A stretch of DNA of 64,000 nt from IMG/VR virus record IMGVR_UViG_3300033566_000060, positions 1 to 64,000 of that record. One strand, written 5' to 3'. The position numbers and the translations under genes were made by a program. Positions within the stretch are counted from its first letter, which is position 1, and the number at the start of each line of letters is the position of its first letter. This document shows, in pieces, positions 3,001-27,284 of this stretch. The DNA is from a virus. Under the pieces are notes generated by a model that was given only the letters and a program-made list of their open reading frames with translations, did no database searches and was not told where the DNA came from.

Positions 3001-3930
3001 TTTGCACCATCGGAAGTAATCGTGAAGCCGTTACGTATTGTGATGGAAGAAAGAGAAGGCAGGACTGCTAAAGAAAAAATGGAAAAATCCATTATAGAAG
3101 TATTAAAACCATATTTGGGTGCCGACCTTTCGTACAAGACCGCAAATGAGTTAATGACCAACAACGATGAATTCGATAAAAAGATTTATCAGGCGGACAG
3201 TTTTTATGAGGCATTGACCAATAAAAAAGACCTGACACAGATATTGAATTACTACGCCAAGAAAGCCGGTCCCGGAGTGTATTCCAATGTCAGCGACTTT
3301 TTAAGAGCGAACGATAAGGGAAGTGAAGTGTTGGGGGATAAGTTTACGGCGTATGGGAAAGAGTACACGAATTTCGATGCTACGTTGGGATTCTTTGGGA
3401 TTCGCACCTCAACTGTAAACTACTCACAAGCGATTGTGAACAACAACAAAAGAACCACCGCTGTACTTAACGACAACAAGGAGTTTTTAAGAAAAGCAAT
3501 GAAGTCAACCACTAAAATGGCGGATGATCGCTTACAAATGAATTTCGATAGTTATGTAAAAGGAGAAGACGAAGCGTACAAAAAAGTATTGCGTGGGGTG
3601 GAAATTGGATTTAAATTCAATATCAATAAAGGGGAGATGGCAACGCTTTTTGAAAGTTCCAACTATTCCAAGAAAGACATCGCATTTTTGGTGAACGGAT
3701 TCCAACCACCTTACGATTACATCACCAAGGAAACAGCAGTAAACAAGATTACAGAAATAAGGAGCAACTACGATGCGGAAAAAGCAAAAGAGGTTGTACA
3801 GAATTACAAAAGCAATATCGAGCGATTCAACGATATGGTGGATTCAAAAAACAGAGCGTTATACGAATCCAACGGAGAGATTTATAAAAAACTGTACGGC
3901 AGATTTGGAACAAAAAACCCACTTAAATAG
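1..3930 (+). CDS. large virion-associated protein, 5'-partial (open at window edge)
   Basis: Frame 1 has no stop from base 1 to TAG 3928-3930, so the listed GTG at 28 is not the real start. More than 1300 codons. One internal hydrophobic helix (MMVANVLPTALAAYVAAGLGV). No enzyme motif recognised. It would follow the late module if the genome is circular or permuted. Confidence 0.85.
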   Translation, partial: ERAQQVREAVKSFEPSNEYEAALHYIASGGGINTDSASKETGASKETGVSKGEVKWATNFKKNEDLPSVERASEIIAESSSTPLDQPSVRDAMIEILSSHKSITEVHDKILEAREETNKKLKDEENRIFMGSLSEQERTFVESKLAEDDYLSELNDDEKLAYYEQQYGTEQERNQSENRLDGSEQTNGQPESGNPSVQEREGAQPGKTATEKITEDNLPDINKKGASKTIPLSDAVEAKVSVQEFMDGENGYSVQLFNNGELVEDKHGDTETEFTSDETSDLVKFLESKKKGYALSQKGKTGKPEGIKVEVPNQKRRVSFNMFGVEMFGEQQEDGSIIADDNSKYSKGMQSNGVITDVVGIDEGKNYRNEGDVATQGFGGGQRTDSSLSKGGGSMSRNYYKNKVKRAWNRLFKSNAGLDHKSGETLRSLQRDIDYLQDLMGTDSGIFKNVLKATQKASKNKEDFRLKLLALNRYMQGGGGNLDFLGKNEKAQLSYLRDRIDSLSEQVINTLQDQADGLPDGDKKTALLEFIQKLKDNKGKYVNRSYQIFHDEKYREGMAMAYDKMPTEYRKRYDTAVNFMMREEGMTKEEAQSYISGYLDDIIRSKNDISQGFAGRADAPFLKKRKDLPIEFQELLGVVRDPLENYLRTVDKISRYLASLKYQEKMKSHLLESGIGITEPKQGYTKLTSDVKEWEALSDMYVPVEFKQAMEDMLPLDKVNQYVFRKWIEFASLTKVGKTVLNPSGVFRNFMSGTFLGLNAGHFTWTNPKTMGMAFNQALKTNTAKKGMAGLRKELIEQEIIGSGADSQEMLTFMNDFSNSIDRKLSTNPLVPIMNGMQKAYAFGDDFYKVSGYMIEKKRLIDTGVSEAEATRMAGERIRGGYPTYSYLPRAFKELRRIPLVGTFISFPYEVVRSTKNNAMYVHEDWTEGRKVMAMQRAAGMMVANVLPTALAAYVAAGLGVDDEDDDKIRELLPDYQQDALLMYYGKDEKGYPKFVDLTAFAPSEVIVKPLRIVMEEREGRTAKEKMEKSIIEVLKPYLGADLSYKTANELMTNNDEFDKKIYQADSFYEALTNKKDLTQILNYYAKKAGPGVYSNVSDFLRANDKGSEVLGDKFTAYGKEYTNFDATLGFFGIRTSTVNYSQAIVNNNKRTTAVLNDNKEFLRKAMKSTTKMADDRLQMNFDSYVKGEDEAYKKVLRGVEIGFKFNINKGEMATLFESSNYSKKDIAFLVNGFQPPYDYITKETAVNKITEIRSNYDAEKAKEVVQNYKSNIERFNDMVDSKNRALYESNGEIYKKLYGRFGTKNPLK
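109..162 (+). repeat. 18-bp in-frame tandem repeat (two exact copies plus one diverged)
   Basis: gcttctaaagaaaccgga occurs at 109-126 and 127-144, followed by gtttctaaaggagaggtg at 145-162. It encodes ASKETG-ASKETG-VSKGEV. Confidence 0.85.
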
Positions 3931-3945
3931 TGGGTTTTTTTCTTT
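3912..3945 (+). terminator. rho-independent terminator
   Basis: Stem aaaaaacccac / gtgggtttttt with the stop codon in the loop, followed by a T-run. Confidence 0.7.
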
Positions 3946-4122
3946 TTGTTAGGCCGCCATTCTTAATGGTTGTCCTAAAGTAATAACTTTTGCATTTATT
4001 GTTTTTGTTCTCCTTATTACCTAATATTCTATTGTCAAAGCCAAGCACCCCCAAATATTATAGTTTATTATTTGTTTCCCTGACTATAAAAGGGAATAAA
4101 GCAACTTTACACGTTTTACTTG

Positions 4123-4153
4123 TGGAGGTGGAGGGAGTCGAACCCTCGTCCAG
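4123..4153 (-). other. tRNA/tmRNA 3'-end-like fragment (T-arm plus 3' acceptor strand); candidate attP core
   Basis: The minus strand reads CTGGAC-GAGGG-TTCGACT-CCCTC-CACCTCC-A. That is a canonical T-stem/loop plus a 7-nt acceptor strand. No matching 5' acceptor strand (GGAGGTG) lies upstream, so it is a fragment and not a gene. Confidence 0.45.
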
Positions 4154-4282
4154 ATAGCGTTCAATAATACGTCAACGAACAGTTCAAATATACTTTTTTT
4201 TATTAAAAAAACAAAACTTCTTTTTTTCTTTACTCACCGGTTACGATTTCCGGATCGATGACTTCGATTTCTTTTACTTGTT

Positions 4283-4951
4283 TCATAAGTGGTATTTATT
4301 AAAAACACAGTACTCTTCGTTATAAATTCCCAATTCTAGGTTTATCTCATTTCGAAGCTCGATGCGTTGGTTGATATTGAACTTTTTTTGTGACTTTTTA
4401 AGTTTGTTTTTTATTTTACGGGCCTTCATGGTAAAATCCATAAAATCTTCCTGGTTGTAATTTAAAGTTTCGGTACGGCGTAATTCAGAAATAAAATTCA
4501 TATAATCTTGTCCGTATTCTTTAATCAATCCTTCCCTTAATAATCCATCGTCGTTTTGAAAATGGTTGGACTGCGCTGACTGCCGGTGAATATTATGCAA
4601 ATTGTACCGAATGGTTTGGTTACTCCCTCTGGAATACACATGACCGGCATGGAATTGTTTGGCCATGTAATCTCTCGCTAAACATTTTTGGCCGTAATCT
4701 AAAAAGCGAATTATGGCGTTTATTTCATTTTGAAGTTCCTCTTTCCAATTGGTTATTTTTTCGCGTAGTTTTTCTTTTTCGAGACGTTTTTCTTTTTTTC
4801 TTTCTAAGTCTTTTTTAGCAATGGATTTATTGGCTATTTTGGTAGCGTAGGCAACACGGCAATCGTATTGTTGACAAACGGGTTCGGTGGTTAATCTTAC
4901 CGGAGTAAACTCTTGTCCACATTCTTTACACTTCTTTTTTATTACCTTCAT
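4283..4951 (-). CDS. ninG: NinG/Rap-like recombination endonuclease
   Basis: N-terminal Cys-rich zinc finger (CKECGQEF...CQQYDC). HAGHVYSRGSNQTIRYNLHNIHRQSAQSNHF block typical of lambda NinG-family proteins. Confidence 0.7.
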   Translation of the reverse strand: MKVIKKKCKECGQEFTPVRLTTEPVCQQYDCRVAYATKIANKSIAKKDLERKKEKRLEKEKLREKITNWKEELQNEINAIIRFLDYGQKCLARDYMAKQFHAGHVYSRGSNQTIRYNLHNIHRQSAQSNHFQNDDGLLREGLIKEYGQDYMNFISELRRTETLNYNQEDFMDFTMKARKIKNKLKKSQKKFNINQRIELRNEINLELGIYNEEYCVFNKYHL

Positions 4952-5192
4952 ACTTTACTCCTTTTTTATCCAACAACCATTTCGGACAGTTTAAATAATA
5001 GACGTTGAATATAGGACTTTCTTTTGATATTTCGGTTTCGATGGTGCATATTTTTTTCGGGAACCATTCCAAACGTGAACCACTGGAGTAGCGTCCGTTT
5101 TCGTCGAAAATCAAATCCACCAAACAGCCGTAGCTTGTTTCACTTTCCCTATTCAAAGCCACTCGCACTCTTTTTATTTCTGAATTTTCCAT
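4926..5192 (-). CDS. hypothetical protein
   Basis: 88-aa ORF immediately downstream of the last cassette hairpin. It overlaps the ninG start by 26 nt, which suggests an operon. Confidence 0.6.
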   Translation of the reverse strand: MENSEIKRVRVALNRESETSYGCLVDLIFDENGRYSSGSRLEWFPKKICTIETEISKESPIFNVYYLNCPKWLLDKKGVKYEGNKKEV

Positions 5193-5220
5193 GATTAAAT
5201 CTATTTCAAATCTATTTTTT

Positions 5221-5319
5221 TACGCAATGCGTTTTTTTGAATAGATTTTAATTAATGACTTATTTCGCAATAAGTTACAAAATATATTTTTTTTGTGCAT
5301 TGCGTATATATGCGAGTTA
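5221..5319 (-). repeat. terminal hairpin closing the minus-strand cassette array
   Basis: After the TAAC of cassette E (plus-strand 5316-5319), a 10-bp stem forms between TACGCAATGC (5221-5230) and GCATTGCGTA (5297-5306). An inner hairpin ACTTATT/AATAAGT is present. No following GTTA box. Confidence 0.6.
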
Positions 5320-5328
5320 GCAGTAATA

Positions 5329-5586
5329 CTACTCAACATTGTCTATATCTCCGTAAGTTTCTAATTCACATTTTTTGTTTAGTAAAATTAAATCTTCCAT
5401 TTTACCAACTACATGAACAGTTTTCCATTTGTTATGATAGTCTTTCATGCTTTTTAATTTTACGTTAAATTCTTTATGATATTTTTTAACGCATTCGGCA
5501 AATTTTATCGGAACATTTGAAATTAAAGTACTACTGCTAACATCGGTTTTGTTCAATGCCTTGTTTTGGTCTTTTTCTGTATTCAT
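5329..5586 (-). CDS. hypothetical protein (cassette E cargo)
   Basis: Boxed by GTTAGCAGTAGTAC (plus coords 5528-5541) and GTATTACTGCTAAC (5316-5329). The ATG lies in the loop of the upstream hairpin. There is no ATG close downstream of the 5' box; the first is 27 codons in. Confidence 0.7.
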   Translation of the reverse strand: MNTEKDQNKALNKTDVSSSTLISNVPIKFAECVKKYHKEFNVKLKSMKDYHNKWKTVHVVGKMEDLILLNKKCELETYGDIDNVE

Positions 5587-5665
5587 TCCATTTAATTTTA
5601 AGTTAGTGTTTACTTGTTGTGTTCAGTTTTAAATCAACGGCACTAAACAAAGCCGAGAACCGTTA
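5538..5665 (-). repeat. attC-like imperfect hairpin element (between cassettes D and E), 128 bp
   Basis: Minus strand reads TAAC-GGTTC-TCGG-C-TTTGTTTAGTGCC ... GGCATTGAACAAA-A-CCGA-T-GTTA. About 18-bp stem with a C:A mismatch 6 nt from GTTA. The loop contains the start codon of the next ORF. Confidence 0.8.
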
Positions 5666-5672
5666 GCGGTAA

Positions 5673-6101
5673 TTATACATCAACTTCATGTGAAAAAGAT
5701 TCGTATAAATATCTTTGTCCTAATTTCGTTAAAGTCCATTTTTTAGTAACTAATCCTAATTCCTCAACAATACATTTTGCTGTATGACCTGTATAATATC
5801 CACCTGCGCATTTCAATAATGTGCTTCTTAGTACATCGCGTTTTTCACAATCACCAAAATTTGCATTACCCCAAGCATAAATCAATTGTTCGTCTGAAAT
5901 TATTTTTTTCAACTCGCCATTATAACTACCGCTAACATTGGTTTTATGCAATTGCAAGGCTTGGTCTTTTTCTGCCGTGATTATTTCTTTTGCCTTTAAT
6001 ACATCCTCTACAAGTTTTTTACCTGTTGTGGTTAATGAATCAGTCAAATTCCAATCAAATTTGTCATGCAATAGTTTTAAAATTTCTTCGTAATCTTCCA
6101 T
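5673..6101 (-). CDS. hypothetical protein (cassette D cargo fused to a hairpin-encoded N-terminal segment)
   Basis: Boxed by GTTAGCGGTAGTTA (5923-5936) and TAATTACCGCTAAC (5662-5675). The first ~45 codons lie inside the enlarged hairpin loop. The conserved LQLHKTNVSGS segment is encoded across the right arm and the box. Confidence 0.7.
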   Translation of the reverse strand: MEDYEEILKLLHDKFDWNLTDSLTTTGKKLVEDVLKAKEIITAEKDQALQLHKTNVSGSYNGELKKIISDEQLIYAWGNANFGDCEKRDVLRSTLLKCAGGYYTGHTAKCIVEELGLVTKKWTLTKLGQRYLYESFSHEVDV

Positions 6102-6157
6102 AATTTTTGTTTTGTTAAGTGATTAATCTTTGCAACTGCATAAAGCCTTTGACGTTA
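5933..6157 (-). repeat. attC-like hairpin element, enlarged (225 bp, between cassettes C and D)
   Basis: Stem formed by plus-strand 5940-5957 and 6130-6147 (ggttttatgcaattgcaa / ttgcaactgcataaagcc) with one G:T pair and the conserved C:A mismatch. The ~170-nt loop carries 45 codons of ORF 5673..6101. Confidence 0.7.
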
Positions 6158-6526
6158 GCGGCAATACTTGACGTGCTTCCGTAAATCATTCGGCAGTTGA
6201 TAAACGGTAATCAATCTATTGTCGCAAAAGAAAAATATGTTTTCACCATAAATTCTTACGTTGTTGCAATGCTTGTAATTGAACCAAAGTTTTGTCAGGT
6301 ATCTCATTAGACTGCCTTTTGTGTCCTTATGTCTTACACCTTCCAAAAAAGCCTTTTCAGCCATTTTATCCAAAACTTTTGACTTCCAATTCAGCCTTTC
6401 TTTTGCTCTTTCGTAGGCGTGTTCCGTGATTAGTACTGCCGCTAACACAGGTTTTGCGTCAGGCGGGCATACGTTGTTATCTTCAACTTTTATTTCTTCT
6501 ATCATCTTTTGTGGTTTTATGAACAT
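6155..6526 (-). CDS. hypothetical protein (cassette C cargo)
   Basis: Boxed by GTTAGCGGCAGTAC (6433-6446) and GTATTGCCGCTAAC (6154-6167). The stop codon lies inside the 3' box. Start moved to ATG 6526 in the hairpin loop, because the track start at 6577 lies in the previous cassette's 3' box. Confidence 0.65.
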   Translation of the reverse strand: MFIKPQKMIEEIKVEDNNVCPPDAKPVLAAVLITEHAYERAKERLNWKSKVLDKMAEKAFLEGVRHKDTKGSLMRYLTKLWFNYKHCNNVRIYGENIFFFCDNRLITVYQLPNDLRKHVKYCR

Positions 6527-6570
6527 TTGTAATTCTAATTCCCGCCCGAACGCAAAGCCTCGTAACGTTA
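6443..6570 (-). repeat. attC-like imperfect hairpin element (between cassettes B and C), 128 bp
   Basis: Minus strand reads TAAC-GTTAC-GAGG-C-TTTGCGTTCGGGCGGG ... CCCGCCTGACGCAAA-A-CCTG-T-GTTA. It has the same C:A mismatch position and one bulge. Confidence 0.8.
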
Positions 6571-6579
6571 GGAGCAAGC

Positions 6580-7029
6580 TTACGAGCGACCGTCAAAAAC
6601 GACAATCATACTATCTTTGGTCCCGCTTTGTTCCTTTCCATCTTTGTTTAATGGAATGTAAAAGTTTCTGTTTTCGTCTAACTTTCCAAATTTAATTCTA
6701 CCTTTTAAAAATTCTATTTCAGTTGCGTTTGGTTTGATCCATTCGTGAAATAATTTTGTGCTTGTAGATACCGGAATAAGGAAAACACAAACTTTTCCTT
6801 TATTCATTTCTTCAACTCCTTTTTTTACAAATTCCTCTTTTAGTTTTTGGCTATAAGGCGGATTTACAAAATTTGAGTTTCCCCATTCGATTTTCAAACC
6901 ATCATTTACAATTTCATTTTCATTGTAAGGACAAGGATCAAAATCAAAATTAAAACGCTTATTTAATTCCTCATATAATTTTGGAGGTGTAGCATAATTG
7001 TCATCGTTGTTTATGTGTATTTTTTTCAT
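6580..7029 (-). CDS. phage Dam-type N6-adenine DNA methyltransferase (cassette B cargo)
   Basis: YATPPKLYEEL...FDFDPCP...W...NSNFVNPPYS pattern (NPPY motif IV) typical of small phage N6A methylases. Boxed by GTTAGGAGCTGGCT (7052-7065) and AGCTTGCTCCTAAC (6567-6580). It has its own ATG 23 nt after the 5' box. Confidence 0.75.
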   Translation of the reverse strand: MKKIHINNDDNYATPPKLYEELNKRFNFDFDPCPYNENEIVNDGLKIEWGNSNFVNPPYSQKLKEEFVKKGVEEMNKGKVCVFLIPVSTSTKLFHEWIKPNATEIEFLKGRIKFGKLDENRNFYIPLNKDGKEQSGTKDSMIVVFDGRS

Positions 7030-7061
7030 TTCAAATTTTTAGTTGATAAAAAGCCAGCTCC

Positions 7062-7187
7062 TAACATCGGTTTGAAAGCAATGGCAAAATATGTGGTTTA
7101 ATCACGTTTATCTTTCGCAAGAAATTCATTAGTAACGGAAAATTTATCTTTCCGAAATTTGCCACTGCTTCAAGCCGAGTACCGTTA
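7062..7187 (-). repeat. attC-like imperfect hairpin element (between cassettes A and B), 126 bp
   Basis: Minus strand reads TAAC-GGTAC-TCGG-C-TTGAAGCAGTGGCAAA ... TTTGCCATTGCTTTCAA-A-CCGA-T-GTTA. About 22-bp stem with the C:A mismatch and one bulged C. Confidence 0.8.
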
Positions 7188-7196
7188 GCGGTAATA

Positions 7197-7472
7197 CTAA
7201 TTTACATCATCATTCCATAAAGGATGGTCGCAATTATCACAAAAACCAACTCTTATTTCTCTATTATCTTTCTTTACGTTTATTTCCTTACAATCTGTAC
7301 ATTCATAAATTTTGAATCCAACAGGTAAAGCACTACCGCTAACACTGGTTTTATGCAATTGCAAGAGTTGTTTTAATTCAGTAAGCAACTGTTCATTTAA
7401 TTTTGTTATCGAACCGTGTTCTTTTGATAATTCAAGAGCTGTTATTTTATCTTGTACTGTTTTAAATTCCAT
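7197..7472 (-). CDS. zinc-ribbon protein (cassette A cargo fused to an N-terminal leader)
   Basis: C-terminal CxxC...CxxC (YECTDCKE...FCDNCDH). Boxed by GTTAGCGGTAGTGC (7330-7343) and GTATTACCGCTAAC (7184-7197). The leader ends in LQLHKTSVSGS, nearly identical in DNA to the cassette D leader. Confidence 0.7.
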   Translation of the reverse strand: MEFKTVQDKITALELSKEHGSITKLNEQLLTELKQLLQLHKTSVSGSALPVGFKIYECTDCKEINVKKDNREIRVGFCDNCDHPLWNDDVN

Positions 7473-7493
7473 AATTTTTGTAATGTTTAGTGA

Positions 7494-7694
7494 TTAATTT
7501 TTAATCATTACCATTGTTCCATTGATACCGTTAACGGTTTTTATTTTTCCTTCGTTGTACAATTCCTGGAGGATAGGTCGGATTTCAGCATAGCCCATTT
7601 TGAATTCCGAGATAAGGTTTACCATGTAGGTTCCGTTGCTGCCCCCAGAGTTTTCGTGCCTATCCTTGATGAAGTTTTCGATTTTGTCTTTCAT
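7494..7694 (-). CDS. hypothetical small protein
   Basis: 66-aa ORF whose start overlaps the upstream stop by 4 nt (7691-7694), which suggests an operon. Confidence 0.6.
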   Translation of the reverse strand: MKDKIENFIKDRHENSGGSNGTYMVNLISEFKMGYAEIRPILQELYNEGKIKTVNGINGTMVMIKN

Positions 7695-8056
7695 CGTAAA
7701 AAAGAGTTAGTATGGTTAATAGTCATTTGCAACAAGTTGATTTCACTTACAACAACGTTTTTTTGATGTAGTTGTTCGTTTATTTTTTCTTTCAAAATCT
7801 CAATGTCGTTCTCTACACTTTTGTAAATCCGGCGTTCCGACTCCATTTTTTTTAATGAATGGGTAACGGAAGATATGTTTCGATTTACAATTTCACTGAT
7901 ACTCTCGTGGGTATAGCCCAATAACTTCCAAAGCATGTAAATATACATCCTCCTTGCCACCACAACTTCTCCGTTTCTTAATTTAGAAAAAAGCACATCT
8001 TCCTCAATCCCGTAGTAGGCACATACGATTGATAAAATTGTTTTTGGATTATTCAT
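7691..8056 (-). CDS. DnaA C-terminal (domain IV)-like HTH protein
   Basis: VVVARRMYIYMLWKLLGYTHESISEIVNRNISSVTHSLKKME resembles the DnaA DNA-binding-domain signature (R..AM.L.R.L...S...I.......HSTV.H...K). Confidence 0.6.
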   Translation of the reverse strand: MNNPKTILSIVCAYYGIEEDVLFSKLRNGEVVVARRMYIYMLWKLLGYTHESISEIVNRNISSVTHSLKKMESERRIYKSVENDIEILKEKINEQLHQKNVVVSEINLLQMTINHTNSFLR

Positions 8057-8927
8057 TTTTTATGAATTTTTCAAAATCAGTTTTTATATCAGCATGCTTT
8101 TTAAAGAATTCCATCAAGATATTTTTTTTAGCCCTTACTTGTGCTTTATCTGTATTTCCTGATTGAATTTTATTTAGCTCTTCTTTAAAATTAAGACGAT
8201 CTTGTTTGTTTACTGATGTGCTTTTCTGTAATTCTTCCTCTACCTGAATTTTGGCTTGTTCTAACTTTTTTAAAAAGTACATTTGAATTTCAGGCTCCTC
8301 TTTGGTTGGTTTTTTAATAATGTTTCGCTCGTAGAGTTCATCGAAAATATATACAAATGGCTCTTCAATATCTTTTAATTCAAGGTATTCATTGAATTTA
8401 CGAATAATAGCATTATCCATTGTTGTTTTCTCGTCTATTAAATTAGCATCGAGAGTTACCGTTTCTTTTTTAGGAGAAATATGATGCTGAAATTTAGTTT
8501 CTTGTTTCCATTTTTTGTACTTTTTTAAAATATCAGCCACATACTCAGCATTAAAAAGCTGAAAATGCTCTGTTTTTTTATCGTACACGCCATGTCTTTC
8601 CAATTCAAAGGCTTTGTATATCTCCTCAATAGATAGTTCAGAATAGACACTAAAAATCATATTTGTAATATCTTGGGATATTTCATCGCTGTCTGCAACT
8701 TTTAATCCGGACAAAGCGCAAATTTTAGTCCATGCGATAGAAAGAAGGAATCCAATGTTGATTTCTGTTTTTCGATCACGAAGTTTTTTAAAATCATAAT
8801 CTTTTTTTAAAAAAGCAATTGGAGATAGATTGCAACTATCAACCACTTGTTGAAACTCCTGTAGCGCAATTTGCTGTTTATGCTCAATTATCGCTAATTT
8901 ATCCATTTTGTAATCGTTACTCTCCAT
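8049..8927 (-). CDS. hypothetical protein (replication module)
   Basis: 292-aa ORF overlapping both neighbours by a few nt. No motif recognised. Confidence 0.7.
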   Translation of the reverse strand: MESNDYKMDKLAIIEHKQQIALQEFQQVVDSCNLSPIAFLKKDYDFKKLRDRKTEINIGFLLSIAWTKICALSGLKVADSDEISQDITNMIFSVYSELSIEEIYKAFELERHGVYDKKTEHFQLFNAEYVADILKKYKKWKQETKFQHHISPKKETVTLDANLIDEKTTMDNAIIRKFNEYLELKDIEEPFVYIFDELYERNIIKKPTKEEPEIQMYFLKKLEQAKIQVEEELQKSTSVNKQDRLNFKEELNKIQSGNTDKAQVRAKKNILMEFFKKHADIKTDFEKFIKNE

Positions 8928-9744
8928 GATTCGGTATGTTTTGTCCTGGTATTTTTACGTTGGCGAAAGAATTGAATGTCTTTTCTGCATTAGCTATTGT
9001 CATACGTCCTAATTTTTGTTCATCCGGATCTTTTTCTTTTTGCGCGGAACTTTTTTCTTTTTGAAAATTTTTATCGTTTTTAGCCCACGTGTTTAATCTT
9101 CGTTCTAAATCCCATGTTTTTTCAAGTTCTTGTTTGAATTTTGTTTTTGATTTATTTGGTTCTGTCCAATAAGCGTAAAAATCATTAAGTAAATCTTTTC
9201 CATAAGTTTTAAAAAAAGGTTGGAGTGTGGAAGCAAATTTTAATTTGCGACTATCTAAATCTTCTTTACTTTCGTTTAATATAGTTTCCTCTACTTTACT
9301 TTGTGTGTTTACGGGTACTATAGTTTGTAGTTTACTTTGTTTCCTCACCCCTAAACTAATTAAAAGTTGTATTAAACCTTCTAAACTAATACATTTATTT
9401 TTTCTCTTAAAATATGCGTCTTGAATACTATCAACAAAATCTTGACACCAAATTATTTTATTTTCCTCCCAAAGGATAGAATCAAATTTACCTAAATCAA
9501 CTAAATCTTTAATTATAGCTAAAAGAATTTCTTTGCTTATTTTACATTTAGCACTCAAAAACATTACGGTGGTAGGTTTGGATAAATCCAAATAATGATA
9601 GTTAGCTTTTGCTAATTCTCTTAATATTTTTATAAATGTAGCAAATCCGTCATTACCATAGGTTTCTTCTATGTAATACATTTTATTTCCTTCCTCACAA
9701 AAAAAAGGAAAATAATCTACGTTATTTCTTTCAGGTCTTGCCAT
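8917..9744 (-). CDS. DUF4373/Lin1244-like replication initiation (replisome organiser-like) protein
   Basis: N-terminus VDYFPFFCEEGNKMYYIEETYGNDGFATFIKILRELA matches the DYFPH-type N-terminal domain common in phage replication proteins. Confidence 0.55.
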   Translation of the reverse strand: MARPERNNVDYFPFFCEEGNKMYYIEETYGNDGFATFIKILRELAKANYHYLDLSKPTTVMFLSAKCKISKEILLAIIKDLVDLGKFDSILWEENKIIWCQDFVDSIQDAYFKRKNKCISLEGLIQLLISLGVRKQSKLQTIVPVNTQSKVEETILNESKEDLDSRKLKFASTLQPFFKTYGKDLLNDFYAYWTEPNKSKTKFKQELEKTWDLERRLNTWAKNDKNFQKEKSSAQKEKDPDEQKLGRMTIANAEKTFNSFANVKIPGQNIPNHGE

Positions 9745-15253: not shown

Positions 15254-15261
15254 CTAAAGAA

Positions 15262-15387
15262 TAACGGTTCGCAGCTATACGAAGGGCGGGATTTAAAAAC
15301 AAAAATTTAATATGATGCAGAAAACTTTATTTGAAAACGAGAACTTGATTGAACCACTAAAACCCGCCTTTTGTATAGGTGCTGTTA
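15262..15387 (+). repeat. attC-like imperfect hairpin element H0 (head of plus array), 126 bp
   Basis: TAAC (15262-15265) plus GGTTC spacer. Stem 15271-15290 pairs with 15363-15382 (two G:T pairs, one G:G mismatch 5 nt from GTTA). The 72-nt loop contains ATG 15312. Ends in GTTA 15384-15387. Confidence 0.8.
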
Positions 15388-16346
15388 GCCGCAGTACTTT
15401 GTTGTTCGGGGATTGCTTGATTGAAAGCGATAAAATAGAAAGTGGCTCAGTTGATTTAATATTGACCGATTTGCCTTATGGAAATATGAAGGGATTAAAT
15501 TATAAAGTATTTAATAACCCCAGTAAAGATAACGGTGGTTTGATTTGGGATAATACGATTGATGCAAATAAAATAATGCAAATAGCAAACCGAATACTTC
15601 GTAAAAATGGTAAAATGCTTTTATTTGCTCAACAACCGTTCACGACTGAATTAATAAATGCACAAATACCAAACTTACCGCATTCTTATAATTTAATTTG
15701 GGAGAAAACAGACTTTGCAAACTGCTTATTAATAAATAAGTCTTGTGCTAATTTTTATGAAGATATTTTGATATTTAGTAAGAACCACCAAAAACACGAC
15801 TTTGAAGGAATGCACCCATTAAGACATTATTTTAAAAAAGTTATGGATTTTATAGGGCTTAATAAAAAAGCGATAGTTGAAAAGATAGGACAAAAGGCAG
15901 ACCATACATTTAGAACTGATAGTACTCAATACGGATTATGCACCGAAAAAACATACTTAGAATTGATTGAAGTATTTGGTATTGATAAAATAGAAGGATT
16001 TAAAACCTTTGCAGAATTAAAGCAAATTGATACTGAATATAGAACTGACTTATTAAAGCAAATGAATAACCAATACCCAAGTACTTTTAACCTTTGGGAG
16101 GGCAACAAATACAAAAGCAACATTTTGAAATACAAAAAGGATTACAACGGCTATCATCCTACTCAAAAACCTATTTTATTGCTTGAAGATTTAATAAAGA
16201 CTTTTAGTAACGAAGGTAATTTAGTAGTTGACTTAACAATGGGTAGCGGCTCAACTGGAGTTGCTTGTAAGAACACAAATAGAAACTTTATCGGAATTGA
16301 GAAAGATGAAAATTATTATAATGTCGCTGTACGGAGGTGTTCTTAG
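15312..16346 (+). CDS. DNA methyltransferase, N4/N6 beta-class (cassette 1 cargo)
   Basis: DLILTDLPYGN (motif IV, DPPY-like) precedes the C-terminal VVDLTMGSGSTGVAC (motif I). Boxed by GTTAGCCGCAGTAC (15384-15397) and GTATTGCGGCTAAC (16346-16359). The first 24 codons lie in the hairpin. Confidence 0.8.
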   Translation: MMQKTLFENENLIEPLKPAFCIGAVSRSTLLFGDCLIESDKIESGSVDLILTDLPYGNMKGLNYKVFNNPSKDNGGLIWDNTIDANKIMQIANRILRKNGKMLLFAQQPFTTELINAQIPNLPHSYNLIWEKTDFANCLLINKSCANFYEDILIFSKNHQKHDFEGMHPLRHYFKKVMDFIGLNKKAIVEKIGQKADHTFRTDSTQYGLCTEKTYLELIEVFGIDKIEGFKTFAELKQIDTEYRTDLLKQMNNQYPSTFNLWEGNKYKSNILKYKKDYNGYHPTQKPILLLEDLIKTFSNEGNLVVDLTMGSGSTGVACKNTNRNFIGIEKDENYYNVAVRRCS

Positions 16347-16355
16347 TATTGCGGC

Positions 16356-16481
16356 TAACGTCCTGCCACTTGGCGATGTGGCAAAAAAGTACGCCCGAAT
16401 TATCGGATTATTACAAGTGCGTAAGGCACAAAACCAATTATAAATTAAGCCTGAACTTGCCATATTGCCAAATGGCTGTTA
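16356..16481 (+). repeat. attC-like imperfect hairpin element H1, 126 bp
   Basis: TAAC plus GTCCT spacer. Stem 16365-16384 pairs with 16457-16476, with C16369 opposite A16472 and two G:T pairs. 72-nt loop. Ends in GTTA 16478-16481. Confidence 0.85.
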
Positions 16482-16512
16482 TGTGAGGTTGTGGGTTTTT
16501 AAAACAGATTTT

Positions 16513-16950
16513 ATGACAATAAACATTGATTTTGATGGAACTTGTGTTACTCACGATTTCCCAAACGTAGGAAAAAGTATTGGTGCTGAAAAAGTGCTAA
16601 AAAGATTAGTAGATAATGGACATCATTTGATATTATTTACAATGCGTTCTGATAGAAAAGAGGCAAAACCTGTAATTGACCCAACAATACAAAATGTAAC
16701 AGGTAAATTCTTAACAGAAGCGGTTGAATGGTTTAATAGAAATGATATTAAACTTTACGGAATACAGAAAAATCCAACACAATTAAATTGGACTACTTCG
16801 CCAAAAAGCTATGCTGAATTAATGATTGATGATAGTGCATTAGGTTGTCCGTTAAGATTTGATGCAGAAGTTTCAGAAAGACCATTTGCTTGTTGGGAAA
16901 CAATTGAGCAGTATCTGGAGAATATGGGTTGTTTTAAAACGCAATCGTAA
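16513..16950 (+). CDS. HAD-superfamily phosphatase-like protein (cassette 2 cargo)
   Basis: N-terminal DFDGT (DxDxT) motif. Boxed by GTTATGTGAGGTTG (16478-16491) and CAATCTCACATAAC (16951-16964). Start taken at ATG 16513, downstream of the box. Confidence 0.6.
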   Translation: MTINIDFDGTCVTHDFPNVGKSIGAEKVLKRLVDNGHHLILFTMRSDRKEAKPVIDPTIQNVTGKFLTEAVEWFNRNDIKLYGIQKNPTQLNWTTSPKSYAELMIDDSALGCPLRFDAEVSERPFACWETIEQYLENMGCFKTQS

Positions 16951-16960
16951 CAATCTCACA

Positions 16961-17076
16961 TAACGTTACCTCGCTTGGCTTAGTGCCGAGTTATGAAAAC
17001 AATAATTTATAATTTAAAATAAACGTGATGAAAAACGATATAAACGAAAATAAGGCATTGAGCCAAACGAGTGTTA
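16961..17076 (+). repeat. attC-like imperfect hairpin element H2, 116 bp
   Basis: TAAC plus GTTAC spacer. Stem 16970-16987 pairs with 17054-17071, with C16974 opposite A17067. The loop holds the GTG/ATG at 17025/17028. The arms resemble those of the minus-array element at 5538-5665. Confidence 0.85.
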
Positions 17077-17360
17077 GGCGTTGTTTTGCTAATTCATTGC
17101 CTTTTTACGAATACCCAATTCCAGAAGAAAACAGAATTAAAAAATTATTTTCTGAATTTGAAATTAGAGAAATTGGTATTAAAAAAGTTACCGATAGAAT
17201 TCGTAAAGAAATGGGTGCGAAATTTAATTGCAATAGAGTTGAAGTTGATTGGATTACTTCTGAATTAAAAAAACCAACCAAAGATACTTTAAAGGCAATT
17301 GAATGGTTTGACGATTATAGATTTCCTAATAAAGTTAGACGTCTTGAAAATAACGCCTAA
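17028..17360 (+). CDS. hypothetical protein (cassette 3 cargo)
   Basis: Boxed by GTTAGGCGTTGTTT (17073-17086) and AAATAACGCCTAAC (17348-17361). The stop codon is inside the 3' box and the start is inside the H2 loop. Leader NKALSQTSV parallels NKALNKTDV of ORF 5329..5586. Confidence 0.7.
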   Translation: MKNDINENKALSQTSVRRCFANSLPFYEYPIPEENRIKKLFSEFEIREIGIKKVTDRIRKEMGAKFNCNRVEVDWITSELKKPTKDTLKAIEWFDDYRFPNKVRRLENNA

Positions 17361-17486
17361 CGTTCGAGTGCTTGCAGAAGTTAGGGAAAAGTAAGTACTA
17401 ATTTTCGATTAAAAAACTAATAATAACAAACACAAACCAAGCCATCAAGTAAAGCCTAAAACCCTAATTTTTGCAAACACTTGTTA
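17358..17486 (+). repeat. attC-like imperfect hairpin element H3, 129 bp
   Basis: Stem 17366-17386 pairs with 17462-17482 (21 bp, several G:T pairs, C17371 opposite A17477). 75-nt loop. Ends in GTTA 17483-17486. Confidence 0.85.
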
Positions 17487-17508
17487 TGTGCTGTTAATTT
17501 ATCTACAA

Positions 17509-17739
17509 ATGAAAATAGTAAAAATTGAATTAAAAGACAGTATTTTTTATGTTACCAAAAAGCCTAATCTTTTAGAAAAAATATTTGGCAAAAAAGAAAA
17601 AGTTGAAAGATATAGAACAAACAACGATGTATTTCACTATTTCAATCACGTAACTGTTTTTTACAAAGAAGATGGTTCTATTGTTTCTATTAGCAATAAA
17701 ATGTGTGATGTTCTTAATAACTACTTACGTTCTTTTTAA
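17509..17739 (+). CDS. hypothetical protein (cassette 4 cargo)
   Basis: Boxed by GTTATGTGCTGTTA (17483-17496) and TAATAGCACATAAC (17737-17750). ATG 17509 chosen because the track GTG at 17488 lies inside the box. Confidence 0.65.
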   Translation: MKIVKIELKDSIFYVTKKPNLLEKIFGKKEKVERYRTNNDVFHYFNHVTVFYKEDGSIVSISNKMCDVLNNYLRSF

Positions 17740-17746
17740 TAGCACA

Positions 17747-17874
17747 TAACGTTCCGCAACTACACGTCTGTTGCGTAAAAGAACAAAACCATCTTTCAGT
17801 TTAACACGGATTTGAAAGGTACAAAACCAAATATAAATTAATCACAATGTAGCAATAGCGTGTAATTGCTGTTA
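17747..17874 (+). repeat. attC-like imperfect hairpin element H4, 128 bp
   Basis: Stem 17756-17766 pairs with 17859-17869, with C17760 opposite A17865. The loop shares ACAAAACCAAWTATAAATTAA with H1. Confidence 0.8.
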
Positions 17875-17889
17875 TAAGCAGAACGAGTT

Positions 17890-18291
17890 ATGAAAAATAA
17901 AATTTTTGTTTTAGAAGATTTAGATTTTTATTTACCTGATAGTTTTAAAGGAATGGGTAAGCAGTACTTATTAGATTGTATTTTTAACGATAAAATACAA
18001 CGTAAATGGTCGCCAAAAATAGGGGATGTTATGATTGGATGTACTGGAAATATATTTGTTGTTTCATCAGAACACAAACTCAAAGAAGTTTTAGGCGGAA
18101 ACTTATTCTTTTTTGGTGGAGGATTATGCAATAGAGATGGTGGATGTACTCTTAATGACACATATTCATTAACTATGAATAAAAGTGGAAAATGGATTCA
18201 ATACACTAAAGGAGGTTATGAAGAAACAAGCAATCCTTATCACAGTTCGTTTTCTGATTTCAGATATATTCCTTATCCACACGAATTGTAG
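17890..18291 (+). CDS. hypothetical protein (cassette 5 cargo)
   Basis: Boxed by GTTATAAGCAGAAC (17871-17884) and GTTTTGCTTATAAC (18291-18304). It has its own ATG 6 nt after the 5' box. Confidence 0.7.
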   Translation: MKNKIFVLEDLDFYLPDSFKGMGKQYLLDCIFNDKIQRKWSPKIGDVMIGCTGNIFVVSSEHKLKEVLGGNLFFFGGGLCNRDGGCTLNDTYSLTMNKSGKWIQYTKGGYEETSNPYHSSFSDFRYIPYPHEL

Positions 18292-18300
18292 TTTTGCTTA

Positions 18301-18356
18301 TAACGGCTATATGTACAAAACCTTCTAAACCATTAATAAAATAAACACTATACGCC
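18301..18356 (+). repeat. degenerate terminal hairpin abutting the recombinase start codon
   Basis: TAAC-GGCTATATG ... CACTATACGCC-ATG. Weak stem with bulges. The loop keeps the ACAAAACC motif of H1/H4. No GTTA box follows; the recombinase ATG takes its place. Confidence 0.5.
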
Positions 18357-19157
18357 ATGAAAAACTCAAACTTTGTACAAAAATATGAGAGAGATTTAAA
18401 AGTTAAAAACTACTCTCAGAATACTATTAAAAATTATGTTGCACAGATCAATATGTTTTTGGGCTATTTCAAAGAAAAGGATAGCCCGAAACATATCTCT
18501 TCAGACGACATAAAAAACTATCTTTTAACCGCCAAGGAAGTAAATAGTCAACGGCACATGCATTCGGCAATAAAACTGTTCTACAAGTTAACGGTACATC
18601 AGCCTAAAAAGTTTCAATTTATAGAGTATTCCAGGCGCGAAAAACGTTTGCCAAAAATAATCGATAAGGATTACATTATTCAACAGATTGGTAAAATTGA
18701 AAACGTAAAGCATAAAGCGATTATAACGCTTACTTTTTCCACCGGAATGCGTGTTTCAGAAGTATGCAATTTAAAAATAGAAAACATCGACAGCAAAAGA
18801 ATGTTGATTCTCATTAAAAACGCAAAAGGGAATAAGGACCGATATGTTCCTTTATCGCAAACAACACTGGAAACATTACGCATTTACTTCTTAGAATATC
18901 ACCCAAAAGAATATTTATTCAATGGCCAATTTGATTTACAGTATTCACACCGGAGCTGTAACCAGATTGTAAAGAAGTATCTCGGCAACGAATATCATTT
19001 TCACCAATTGAGGCATTCGAACGCTACCGCACTTCTGGAAGCCGGAACCGATTTGAGATATATACAGAAACATCTTGGACATTCGAACGTAAAGACAACA
19101 GAAATATATTGCCATGTATCAACCGCTATGCTTTCAAAATTAAATTTACCAATCTAA
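18357..19157 (+). CDS. small Xer/IntI-like tyrosine recombinase
   Basis: SAM-like N-terminal domain (YSQNTIKNYVAQINMFLGYF). Catalytic set: TGMRVSEV (R), GKGNKDRYVPL (K), HQLRHS (HxxR), GHSNVKTTEIYCHV (H...Y). At 266 aa it is shorter than canonical IntI. Confidence 0.85.
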   Translation: MKNSNFVQKYERDLKVKNYSQNTIKNYVAQINMFLGYFKEKDSPKHISSDDIKNYLLTAKEVNSQRHMHSAIKLFYKLTVHQPKKFQFIEYSRREKRLPKIIDKDYIIQQIGKIENVKHKAIITLTFSTGMRVSEVCNLKIENIDSKRMLILIKNAKGNKDRYVPLSQTTLETLRIYFLEYHPKEYLFNGQFDLQYSHRSCNQIVKKYLGNEYHFHQLRHSNATALLEAGTDLRYIQKHLGHSNVKTTEIYCHVSTAMLSKLNLPI

Positions 19158-26156: not shown

Positions 26157-26219
26157 AACTTACAAATGTTTTTGAATCATGTTAAAATTCGTGTTCCTGA
26201 TTGCGTTTATATATCCATG

Positions 26220-26621
26220 TTACTGGTTATTTTCAGCGTAACCCGACAACATTCGGTTAACTAATTCTTTTACTTCATCTATTTTAGAAATTGGAATACG
26301 AAAAGCCGTTGTTTTTGTTGGCTCATTGTATTTTGGCTTTGCTCCAGCACTTTCACGTTTTCCACCTCTTTTTTCGTTAACTGAAAATCTTTCTACTTCT
26401 ACCCAATCAAAATCAGGATATTGTTTTTTGTTTTCATAAATAATAACGTTAGATGTCACATCATTTCTTGTGGCTTGGTCGGTGTAAAATAAAGAGTTGT
26501 ACTTTACATCTTCCAATGTCATTGCTAATGCGGTTGATACACTTCCAATTTCAGGAAGTGCTTTTGAATAACTGATTGATGCTCTGAAAATGTTTTTCGG
26601 ACTGTTTTTTGAAACTTTCAT
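26220..26621 (-). CDS. hypothetical protein
   Basis: Start moved to ATG 26621 (MKVSKNSP), just downstream of the upstream gene's stop at 26641. Confidence 0.6.
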   Translation of the reverse strand: MKVSKNSPKNIFRASISYSKALPEIGSVSTALAMTLEDVKYNSLFYTDQATRNDVTSNVIIYENKKQYPDFDWVEVERFSVNEKRGGKRESAGAKPKYNEPTKTTAFRIPISKIDEVKELVNRMLSGYAENNQ

Positions 26622-26640
26622 AAGATTTATTTTTGAATTA

Positions 26641-26913
26641 TTATTTAGACCATTTTGAACCTCTTGCTTTTGCTCTGAAAGCATCGATTTCATCTTGAGC
26701 AACTAAATGTCTTTTGTTGTTTTCAGCTTTCAATCTATCGATAACATATTCTATTTCTTCAGAAATAGTGCAAGTCATATCAAAAGTATCTTTGTACATA
26801 GTCAACACTTCTTTTAAAGTAACATATTCAAAACCATTTTCTCTCATTTTCTCTTGAGCAATTTCGATTATCTCGTTTCTGTTTTCTGATAAAAAAGTTT
26901 CTTTAGTTGTCAT
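26641..26913 (-). CDS. hypothetical protein
   Basis: Start moved to ATG 26913 (MTTKETF), downstream of a minus-strand -7 box. Confidence 0.6.
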   Translation of the reverse strand: MTTKETFLSENRNEIIEIAQEKMRENGFEYVTLKEVLTMYKDTFDMTCTISEEIEYVIDRLKAENNKRHLVAQDEIDAFRAKARGSKWSK

Positions 26914-26940
26914 AATTTCTATTTGTTTTATTTTGTTATA

Positions 26941-26948
26941 CAAATATA
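26941..26948 (-). promoter_or_regulatory. -7 promoter box (TATATTTG on minus strand)
   Basis: The plus strand reads CAAATATA, which is the reverse complement of TAnnTTTG. Confidence 0.4.
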
Positions 26949-27284
26949 CGACATCTTTTTGATTGTGCAAACTTTTTCAAAAGAAATTTTAATTTATTTT
27001 TAAATACTTGGAAAACAAAGAAAAACAACCAGTAACAACATGTATAGTAAATGTGGGTTTTAGGCTTAATTTGGAGGTAATTTTGTGTTAGAGAAATAAG
27101 TCTTGAACTGAAATGTTCCGCTTGTTTAATCCCACACTTCCCATACACGCAACCGATAAGAAAATACGCTTTCGTTTTTAAAAATTTCAATGCAGTTTTT
27201 TATATACCAGTTCCTTTCCGTTTTACTGAAAGTTTTCGGAAGTTTTGAAAGAATTTGTCTTATACTGTTCCCGTTGTGTAGTGT

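Follow-up and report, generated by a model that had tools for sequence, protein, structure and literature searches.

The DNA analysed here, hereafter the window, is a 64,000-nt stretch (positions 1 to 64,000) of the IMG/VR virus record IMGVR_UViG_3300033566_000060; it is part of a 69.8-kb metagenomic contig and carries genes like those of Cellulophaga and Flavobacterium phages. Its minus strand encodes, at 5221-7472, five consecutive small genes (array 1), each enclosed by a pair of short complementary boxes and separated from the next by a hairpin-like spacer. The original prediction placed this row inside a phage early operon; its neighbours are replication-type genes (DnaA_C-like, Lin1244_N and KilA-N) on one side and NinG/Rap on the other. 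The row had also been read as an integron-like cassette system. Our analysis confirmed the feature and its nature as a cassette array of integron-like kind, and showed that it is not an integron when judged by its integrase. The kind of array was thus recognised correctly and the proposed geometry did not hold; the linked recombinase is Xer-like and lacks the IntI insertion.

All five 5' and 3' box positions and their hexamers were exact as first read (inverted repeats I21, I23, I15, I11 and I13), and the complementarity extends over 15-16 nt, longer than the 14 nt claimed. On the coding strand the array 1 boxes have the consensus GTTA-N6-GT-N3 near the 5' end of the gene and N3'-AT-N6'-TAAC where the gene stops. 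All five pairs have G at position 11 of the 5' box and T opposite it in the 3' box; on the coding strand these form a G·T (G·U) pair, and the opposite strand has an A·C mismatch. With up to one mismatch allowed, the extended 5' motif AAAACCNNTGTTAG has no occurrence in the 64 kb window other than at the five 5' boxes of array 1. A strict rule, requiring at least 14 of 15 positions paired plus the GT/AT signature, retrieved 12 box pairs in the window, against a mean of 0.1 and a maximum of 1 in 100 shuffles. Such pairs are not limited to array 1, as had been supposed: the strict search also gave a second array on the plus strand (array 2) and a pair at 27036/26219 on the minus strand.

For folding, each cassette's own 3' box, upstream spacer and 5' box were joined, and a covariance model was built from the joined sites of other genomes. 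The spacers of array 1 are 126, 128, 225 and 128 bp long (counted from TAAC to GTTA inclusive), exactly as reported; three of the four score 83-117 bits with the model, and the 225-bp spacer is weak, at 17 bits. The body of cassette A (7184..7343, minus strand like the whole of array 1) lies between the 5' box 7343-7329, GTTAGCGGTAGTGCT, and the 3' box 7198-7184, AGTATTACCGCTAAC (I21), and belongs to a Zn-ribbon-like open reading frame (ORF) with a full extent of 7472-7197. Ahead of it, 7344..7529 is a degenerate hairpin and leader, with the 3' arm at 7347-7364 as its sole recognisable part; gene A has its ATG (7472) and a leader of 43 codons there. This 3' arm and the 5' untranslated region are 85-89% identical to their counterparts in cassette D (repeats D1, D6 and I9). 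An uncertain candidate for the upstream boundary is the TAAC at 7530..7533, within the GTTAAC that ends a 66-aa ORF; its sequence, TAACGGTATCAATGG, resembles the usual hairpin start TAACGGT (repeats D8 and I20), and the covariance model had no match at this boundary.

Cassette B (6567..7183) consists of a hairpin at 7183-7066, the boxes 7065-7051 and 6581-6567 (I23) and an ORF at 7029-6580 with its own ATG downstream of the 5' box; the earlier assignment of this gene to the Dam-type methyltransferases is borne out by Pfam (Dam, E = 1.2e-19), and the covariance model matches 7198-7051 with 83 bits. In cassette C (6154..6566) the hairpin is at 6566-6447 and the boxes at 6446-6432 and 6168-6154 (I15). 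Its ORF, about 6529-6155, starts at an ATG in the hairpin loop and stops at the TAA of the 3' box; the model match (6581-6432) reaches 116.7 bits, and the match to phrog_16724 is restricted to residues beyond the 5' box. The body of C (6200-6427, minus strand) is 76% identical to part of the longer gp041 of Cellulophaga phage phi19:1, annotated as an HNH homing endonuclease, so a cassette domain can exist fused to other domains. Cassette D (5662..6153) has a long, 217-nt hairpin (6153-5937; arms 6147-6125 and 5962-5940, I3), boxes at 5936-5922 and 5676-5662 (I11) and an ORF at 6101-5673; it is matched weakly by the model, and phrog_18088 covers residues 65-133, beyond the 5' box. Cassette E (5316..5661) has its hairpin at 5661-5542, boxes at 5541-5527 and 5330-5316 (I13), an ORF at 5586-5329 and a model match at 5676-5527 of 103.5 bits.

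The array had been described as closed by a terminal hairpin at 5221-5319. This hairpin is weak (z-score -2.6), its minimum-energy fold not being one hairpin, and 5221-5315 (minus strand) looks instead like the conserved terminal site in which other arrays end. In this attI-like candidate TAAC is followed by TCGCATATATACGCAATGC..., with T and not G after TAAC; the end of the array, TAAC/TCGCATATATACGCAATG (the slash marks the junction here and below), fits the loose terminal motif of array ends and resembles terminal sites such as TAAC/TACACCATATACGCAATATTGCG. An Rfam scan of 3500-9000 (E up to 5) gave nothing credible for the hairpins in 5200-7500 and no attC model among its matches, and a scan for transfer RNA and transfer-messenger RNA (tmRNA) genes gave a single tmRNA-like gene, located outside array 1.

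Array 2, which is absent from the original prediction, occupies 15263..18304 on the plus strand, with five box pairs (15384/16359, 16478/16964, 17073/17361, 17483/17750 and 17871/18304) and one gene inside each. Its hairpins (15267-15383, 16360-16477, 16965-17072, 17362-17482 and 17751-17870) score 88-113 bits, and its first cassette encodes an N6_N4 DNA methyltransferase (15312-16346, plus strand, Pfam). Across the window the covariance model recovered eight spacers at 83-117 bits and the long C-D spacer weakly.

The end of array 2 is followed after 52 nt by the start of a 266-aa Xer-like tyrosine recombinase (18357..19157, plus strand; Pfam Phage_integrase with a SAM-like N domain), the candidate cassette recombinase. 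The attI-like terminal spacer between the last TAAC and the start codon (18305..18356, plus strand) carries the motif TAAC/(T/G)(A/G)CTATATGTA...AACACTAATAAA, which is kept across recombinase homologues of 55-92% identity, with TAAC/TACTATATGTA...AACACTAATAAA as the consensus form. Same-strand cassettes lie directly upstream in at least 13 of 18 viral loci with recombinase homologues (most of them 55-92% identical), the last TAAC being 45-80 nt from the recombinase ATG, and the homology between the window and contig L122 begins at the TAAC before the recombinase. At 205 internal junctions TAAC is followed by G; at 64 array ends the next base is T or A, and these ends have a loose common motif.

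The sequence of this recombinase was compared with models of integron integrases and Xer proteins. It matches TIGR02249 (integron integrase) with 139.5 bits, below the cut-off of 265, and in two stretches, and PRK15417 with 91 bits against a cut-off of 435. Its best NCBIfam model is XerA_Arch (181 bits, also below the cut-off), whose name is 'site-specific tyrosine recombinase/integron integrase'. The nearest solved structures are XerA 4A8E (1.6e-32) and 5HXY, then IntI4 2A3V, again in two stretches, and then XerD. As the integron-integrase models are matched in two stretches, the IntI insertion is absent; the protein is not an IntI-type integrase, and the system is therefore an integron analogue and not an integron. 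The Xer-type motifs HQLRHS and LGHSxxxTTxxY are present (aligned to the recombinase of the host locus L164), and from what is known of Xer recombinases we take them to be catalytic. Close homologues are numerous in metagenomes and present in some Flavobacterium genomes, under generic names ('XerD', 'tyrosine recombinase'). A second tyrosine recombinase of 415 aa, of the Bacteroidota phage-integrase type, follows directly (19183-20430, plus strand). We also observed homologues of this second enzyme (37-39% identical) near arrays in phi13:2 (gp038) and in contig L012; prophage integration and cassette handling are its candidate roles.

A third, solitary module lies at 26219..27160 on the minus strand, with a hairpin at about 27160-27037, a perfect 15-bp box pair (27036-27022 / 26233-26219) and two ORFs inside; it falls below the threshold of the covariance model. 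Downstream it has a terminal-type junction, TAAC/ATGGATATATAAACGCAAT, and its upstream boundary is TATC, not TAAC, so this cassette may now be fixed in place.

A scan of viral contigs with an exact pattern spanning the hairpin end and the 5' box detected at least 119 loci, and the hairpins form one covarying family in well over 100 viral contigs. The arrays hold up to nine cassettes by the strict rule, their spacers cluster at 117-120 nt, and their hexamers are highly varied and always complementary. The joined sites fold to a single long hairpin of ~150 nt, with a 16-bp basal stem containing the invariant TAAC/GTTA and the fixed G·T, a 4-nt bulge after TAACG, then 3-4 bp, a C·A mismatch, ~15 bp and an A-rich loop of ~60 nt. 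According to RNAalifold on 63 diverse sequences, 24 of the 32 consensus pairs show compensatory changes; TAAC and GTTA are invariant in 63/63, giving the imperfect palindrome with AAC/GTT ends that is typical of attC hairpins. Pairing holds in 94.9% of cells (63.9% in shuffles). Covariation scores 0.72; shuffles give 0.15, with 0 of 500 reaching 0.72, and slid controls 0.07-0.13. Outside the part on which the box finder selects, 15 of 16 pairs of the inner helix have changes on both sides. The coding strand is the more stable one in 65 of 66 sites with DNA parameters and in 56 of 66 with RNA parameters. Further matches of the covariance model lie in the arrays of other phage loci and of bacterial chromosomes.

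Because each box pair is self-complementary, folding energy is uninformative as to whether a hairpin belongs to the upstream or the downstream gene, and the comparative data alone decide. We compared the 130 nt on each side of cassette bodies at least 80% identical on different contigs. In 17 pairs, from six independent families, the upstream 130 nt is kept and the downstream 130 nt is not; the reverse was seen in none. In the alignments the homology begins at the TAAC before the hairpin and stops at the cassette's own TAAC. The module 15261-16361 (the hairpin and the N6_N4 methyltransferase) is the sole DNA that the window has in common with Flavobacterium phage hemulen6-1, with 86.5% identity, and it too is bounded from TAAC to TAAC. 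In the alignment blocks of this comparison (15267-15383 against L205, hemulen6-1) we had the impression that the hairpin is more conserved than much of the gene body; a truly higher conservation would point to selection on the site itself.

Viral contigs ~95% identical to each other differ by single cassettes at one site. The empty sites in L033 and L099 read ...GCTAAC/TACC... or ...GCTAAC/TCTC..., and at the same point a module of 1069 nt is present in L046 and a different one of 936 nt in L076; both inserts start with GG... immediately 3' of TAAC and end in TAAC. Homology and indel breakpoints alike fall within TAAC(G), as expected for a crossover at AAC/GTT, at a resolution by which comparison does not place the exact bond. 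The ~118-nt hairpin therefore travels with the downstream gene, and the unit is the hairpin plus the 5' box, gene and 3' box. It had been anticipated that breakpoints in related genomes would coincide with the boxes; gain, loss and exchange do break exactly on the invariant box, at TAAC and not at the proposed G/TTA, and the cassettes are modular.

The phage polarity has consequences for the genes. Of 245 distinct phage cassettes, 113 have a reading frame that continues through the 5' box from an in-frame ATG ~50 nt upstream, in the hairpin loop, the arm AAA ACC GAT GTT AGC being translated as K-T-x-V-S; a further 73 have their own start after the 5' box. The stop codon is in or against the 3' box, beginning one base before it in 77 cassettes and being the TAA of TAAC in 51. 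Genes A, C, D and E of array 1 start from a loop ATG and B from its own ATG, and PHROG domain matches start just past the 5' box. Cassette bodies have a median length of 319 nt, and 135 proteins of at least 80 aa fall into 95 clusters. The largest cluster consists of N6_N4 DNA methyltransferases, and the C5, MT-A70, D12 and Mom families were also detected; the window itself has the Dam-type enzyme in array 1 and the N6_N4 enzyme in array 2. This dominance of DNA methyltransferases among the known cargo suggests that anti-restriction genes are the main selected cargo.

Recombinase homologues 40-47% identical were found in Flavobacteriaceae (Psychroserpens, Croceitalea, Maribacter, Wocania and Flavobacterium), and in these chromosomes the same boxes and hairpins adjoin them. 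The host protein at L164 likewise matches TIGR02249 in two stretches and scores above the XerA_Arch cut-off. The polarity of the genes is reversed: ORFs are sense to the folded strand in 157 viral cassettes and antisense in 1, and in host cassettes 9 are antisense and 0 sense. An ORF followed by its own attC, with the folded strand antisense, is thus found in the Flavobacteriaceae arrays and not in the phages. The host arrays thus have the classical integron polarity (ORF, then site; bottom strand folds), with the recombinase gene placed as in 'inverted-integrase' integrons. Since the strand preference is kept while the genes flip, the structure is not conserved for the sake of messenger RNA (mRNA), and its retention on one strand in phage and host points to a role as single-stranded DNA. 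We also noticed that six host contigs (L144, L145, L147, L149, L157 and L166) end ~200-250 nt past the recombinase homologue, which suggests a repeated sequence, perhaps an array, that breaks short-read assemblies.

Taken together, we propose that the region consists of mobile gene cassettes in a row, with an attC-like recombination site as their basis, and we put the probability of this reading, with the mechanism described here, at about 75%. A cassette starts just 3' of TAAC and consists of the ~118-nt hairpin, the 15-nt 5' box, the gene and the 15-nt 3' box ending in TAAC. In a circularised module the 3' box, hairpin and 5' box would join as one continuous hairpin of ~150 nt; in line with the original idea that both boxes derive from one site in a circular form, they are best explained as the opposite sides of a single stem. 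Strand exchange most likely takes place within TAAC(G) of the folded strand, carried out by a tyrosine recombinase, and would insert the cassette at the terminal TAAC of the array or excise it. The candidate enzyme is the 266-aa Xer-like protein encoded after array 2, which would act on array 1 in trans. With the phage genes on the folded strand, the hairpin comes ahead of the gene, its loop often supplying the start codon and a short N-terminal leader, and the TAAC or the 3' box supplies the stop codon. Rapid reshuffling of anti-restriction genes is the likely benefit. The proposed mechanism of a folded single-strand site, exchange within TAAC and an Xer-like catalyst appears strongly supported by comparative evidence.

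Several readings without such a cassette system, or with a different one, have been considered. The hairpins and gene-enclosing stems could be mRNA structures, either translation-initiation platforms or endonuclease processing sites, with exchange by ordinary homologous recombination. The favoured strand in phages is indeed the mRNA strand, the fixed mismatches are G·U pairs on it, the A-rich loop holds the start codon in 113 of 245 cassettes with the stop codon in or beside the 3' box, and translation in Bacteroidota favours unstructured A-rich leaders. An additional role of the hairpins at the RNA level is quite possible. As the whole explanation we consider it unlikely: the same strand-specific hairpin is antisense to the host genes, 9:0, the breakpoints fall on the 4-5 invariant bases TAAC(G) and not on the longer conserved AAACCNNTGTTAGC, different cassettes occupy the same terminal TAAC, and the arrays are tightly linked to a tyrosine recombinase. 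The classical integron layout of the original prediction, in which a gene owns the hairpin that follows it and the crossover is at G/TTA on the coding strand, would account for the pairing of the boxes and the invariant GTTA/TAAC core, and host chromosomes do have arrays of this polarity. For the phage arrays it is scarcely plausible, being contradicted by the 17 pairs with a co-conserved upstream hairpin against 0 with a downstream one, by the TAAC-bounded homology, by inserts with the hairpin first and TAAC last, and by loops that encode the start of the downstream gene.

Xer/dif-type modules like the pdif of Acinetobacter, with the boxes as duplex Xer sites, the hexamer as the central region and genes alternating with hairpins, would fit inverted sites that alternate in orientation, each pair with its own matching hexamer, as well as an Xer-like linked recombinase and the few cassettes that have just the box-to-box body in common. 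We give this model very little credence. The pdif layout of two conserved 11-bp arms around a 6-bp centre was not found: just GTTA and G/A-T are conserved around the hexamer, the two boxes have no common 11-bp arms on both sides of it and their flanks differ from each other, and the fixed G/A asymmetry separates the 5' box from the 3' box. Moreover, the hairpin between the boxes covaries as a structure, and the common module is hairpin plus gene, not the gene alone. Single-strand transposition of the IS200/IS605 type (insertion sequence families) by an HUH enzyme, building tandem arrays by insertion 3' of TAAC, was suggested by insertion exactly 3' of TAAC, by elements ending in TAAC and by the strand-specific structure; IS608 inserts 3' of TTAC. 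It merits hardly any belief, since no HUH transposase was found among the ORFs scanned beside the arrays, the consistent partner being a tyrosine recombinase, and since the site consists of a single long hairpin whose basal stem is split, where this model calls for two small subterminal hairpins. We also considered and dropped inversion switches that use heterospecific sites; gene inversion inside an operon makes no sense, and the consistent difference between 5' and 3' boxes at position 11 and the hairpins, left unexplained, spoke against them too.

Some observations weigh against the cassette recombination reading. The evidence for it is entirely comparative. No close relative and no variant of array 1 was detected in the collections (the adjoining 121-aa protein is on three contigs, the window's own and two similar places), so breakpoints are testable just in other members of the family, and the mobility of array 1 itself would follow from that of its relatives. 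The homology of cassette A to gp032 of Cellulophaga phage phi13:2 (82.7%; 0.82 over the body) is limited to the box-to-box body, as is that between L011 and L096, and cassettes A and D differ in their genes but have the same hairpin arms and hexamer; some exchange thus also takes place at the 5' box or close to it, perhaps through homologous recombination. In many array-bearing phages, phi13:2 and hemulen6-1 among them, the 266-aa recombinase was found to have no close homologue, and Cellulophaga phage Ingeline, with a recombinase 37% identical, has no clear array upstream of it. The loci were fetched by a motif across the hairpin end and 5' box, which possibly biases the sampling of cassettes, and this should not affect the comparison of upstream with downstream flanks. 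P12002L_attC1, the one family member for which a test is on record, gave no recombination with IntI1 (PMC9892861).

The relationship to classical integrons is nevertheless close in form. On the folded bottom strand of a classical integron the cassette reads AA/C-hairpin-GTT...body...AA/C, and behind the array on that strand come the terminal site and next the recombinase gene, in sense and with its 5' end first. This is the module found on the phage coding strand, and the platform is in the same order. Both systems have small, diverse, mostly single-gene cassettes in arrays, one strand favoured for folding, an imperfect hairpin with invariant AAC/GTT in the outer stem and exchange at that triplet, and first bases of the cassette complementary to the start of its own site. 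The conserved 45-80-nt spacer before the recombinase, and two different cassettes at one terminal TAAC in related contigs, may mark a counterpart of attI. The phage system differs in its recombinase (266 aa, nearest to XerA, no IntI insertion), in a basal stem of 15-16 bp instead of about 7 bp, in the 4-nt bulge and C·A mismatch in place of the usual spacer and extrahelical bases, and in having genes on the folded strand, the site ahead of the gene with its start codon, and arrays in early operons.

Plasmid pdif modules of Acinetobacter are alike in carrying genes between inversely oriented sites thought to be used by an Xer-type recombinase. Their sites are duplex 28-bp XerC/XerD sites with no structured hairpin between them, whereas the boundaries and covariation of the phage modules indicate a folded site. 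The PeSL elements of T4-type phages, reportedly described by Arbiol and colleagues in 2010, are said to be stem-loops upstream of small accessory genes in plastic regions, for which shuffling via circles was proposed; they reportedly combine a promoter with a stem-loop and use homologous recombination, with no invariant 4-nt crossover, gene-spanning covarying stem or dedicated recombinase. The attP of CTX phage and similar elements also involve an Xer-family enzyme acting on a hairpin of one DNA strand, and there whole phage genomes are integrated at dif, not arrays of gene cassettes.

In a screen of phage genomes by IntegronFinder and HattCI, Qi et al. 2023 (PMC9892861) described 17 CALINs, clusters of attC that lack an integrase, and also noted methyltransferase cargo. 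These sites were treated as stray parts of bacterial integrons, and no family, own recombinase, boundaries or polarity were described. One of them, P12002L_attC1 of Polaribacter phage P12002L, was predicted by HattCI only and was the sole site that IntI1 did not recombine. We found it to be a short version of the present hairpin family, located between two methyltransferase genes with the same kind of box pairs; the strict box finder gave no pair on P12002L, and this shorter related version was found by reading the sequence. The other site, P12002L_attC2 (L140, 29150-29260), recombined by IntI1 according to PMC9892861, is a stretch after a terminal 3' box, on the opposite strand, and does not belong to the present hairpin family; it may be worth re-examining how orientations were assigned in that paper. 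With archaeal integrons (Ghaly et al. 2022, PMC9668308; NCBIfam NF040815), the likeness is that XerA_Arch is the best NCBIfam model of both the phage and the host recombinases, and the difference that the organisms here are Flavobacteriia, bacterial hosts, and their phages. In our literature searches PMC9892861 alone was directly relevant and nothing closer was found; the system as a whole appears undescribed.

The position of the array within the early operon is not fixed. The NinG homologues are 44-62% identical and their arrays are located elsewhere, after NinG, and in the window array 1 comes before it. Up to 10 hairpins follow NinG in L194 (7627-12222, plus strand) and L193 (10392-13219, plus strand), with NinG proteins 53-62% identical to that of the window. 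Just downstream of NinG in the window, ARAGORN detected a permuted tmRNA-like gene at 3858-4214 (minus strand) with the tag AKVITLGQPLRMAA; Rfam tmRNA_permuted matches 3949-4180 with 65 bits (gathering score 47), the sole real Rfam match in 3500-9000. A permuted tmRNA in a flavobacterial phage is unexpected. An open frame of 1300 aa at 28-3930 (plus strand), with no Pfam match and a GC content of 41%, above that of the early region, belongs to a gene of 2325 aa in the gene calls of the parent contig (L206).

A wider interpretation is that flavobacterial phages have their own integron analogue, with a minimal Xer-like recombinase devoid of the IntI domain, a terminal attI-like site and hairpin-first cassettes in which the hairpin also serves as the translation start of the gene, that their hosts have the same sites in the opposite polarity, and that the system is an engine of accessory-gene turnover; we consider this a slightly better than even bet. 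If it holds, one chemistry would serve the phage and host cassette pools, yet neither would usefully express the genes of the other. It would also be a main engine of accessory-gene turnover in marine phages, especially of anti-restriction methyltransferases, and could represent a surviving link from Xer recombinases to integron integrases. That phage and host combine one site with opposite gene polarities bears on the origin of IntI from Xer enzymes and on how cassettes acquire attC. The small recombinase and its well-defined site could also serve as a tool.

Integrons have been treated as bacterial, and recently archaeal, platforms defined by IntI, of which phages were thought to hold stray pieces only; here there appears to be a coherent cassette system native to phages, and with an integrase that lacks the hallmark domain and sites that seem to fall outside the attC model, it would be missed by standard integron finders. 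Such a system would explain in concrete terms the long-noted mosaic, 'hyperplastic' regions in the early operons of phages and the fast exchange of orphan DNA methyltransferases that defeats host restriction, and this cassette family seems to let marine phages swap their anti-restriction genes.

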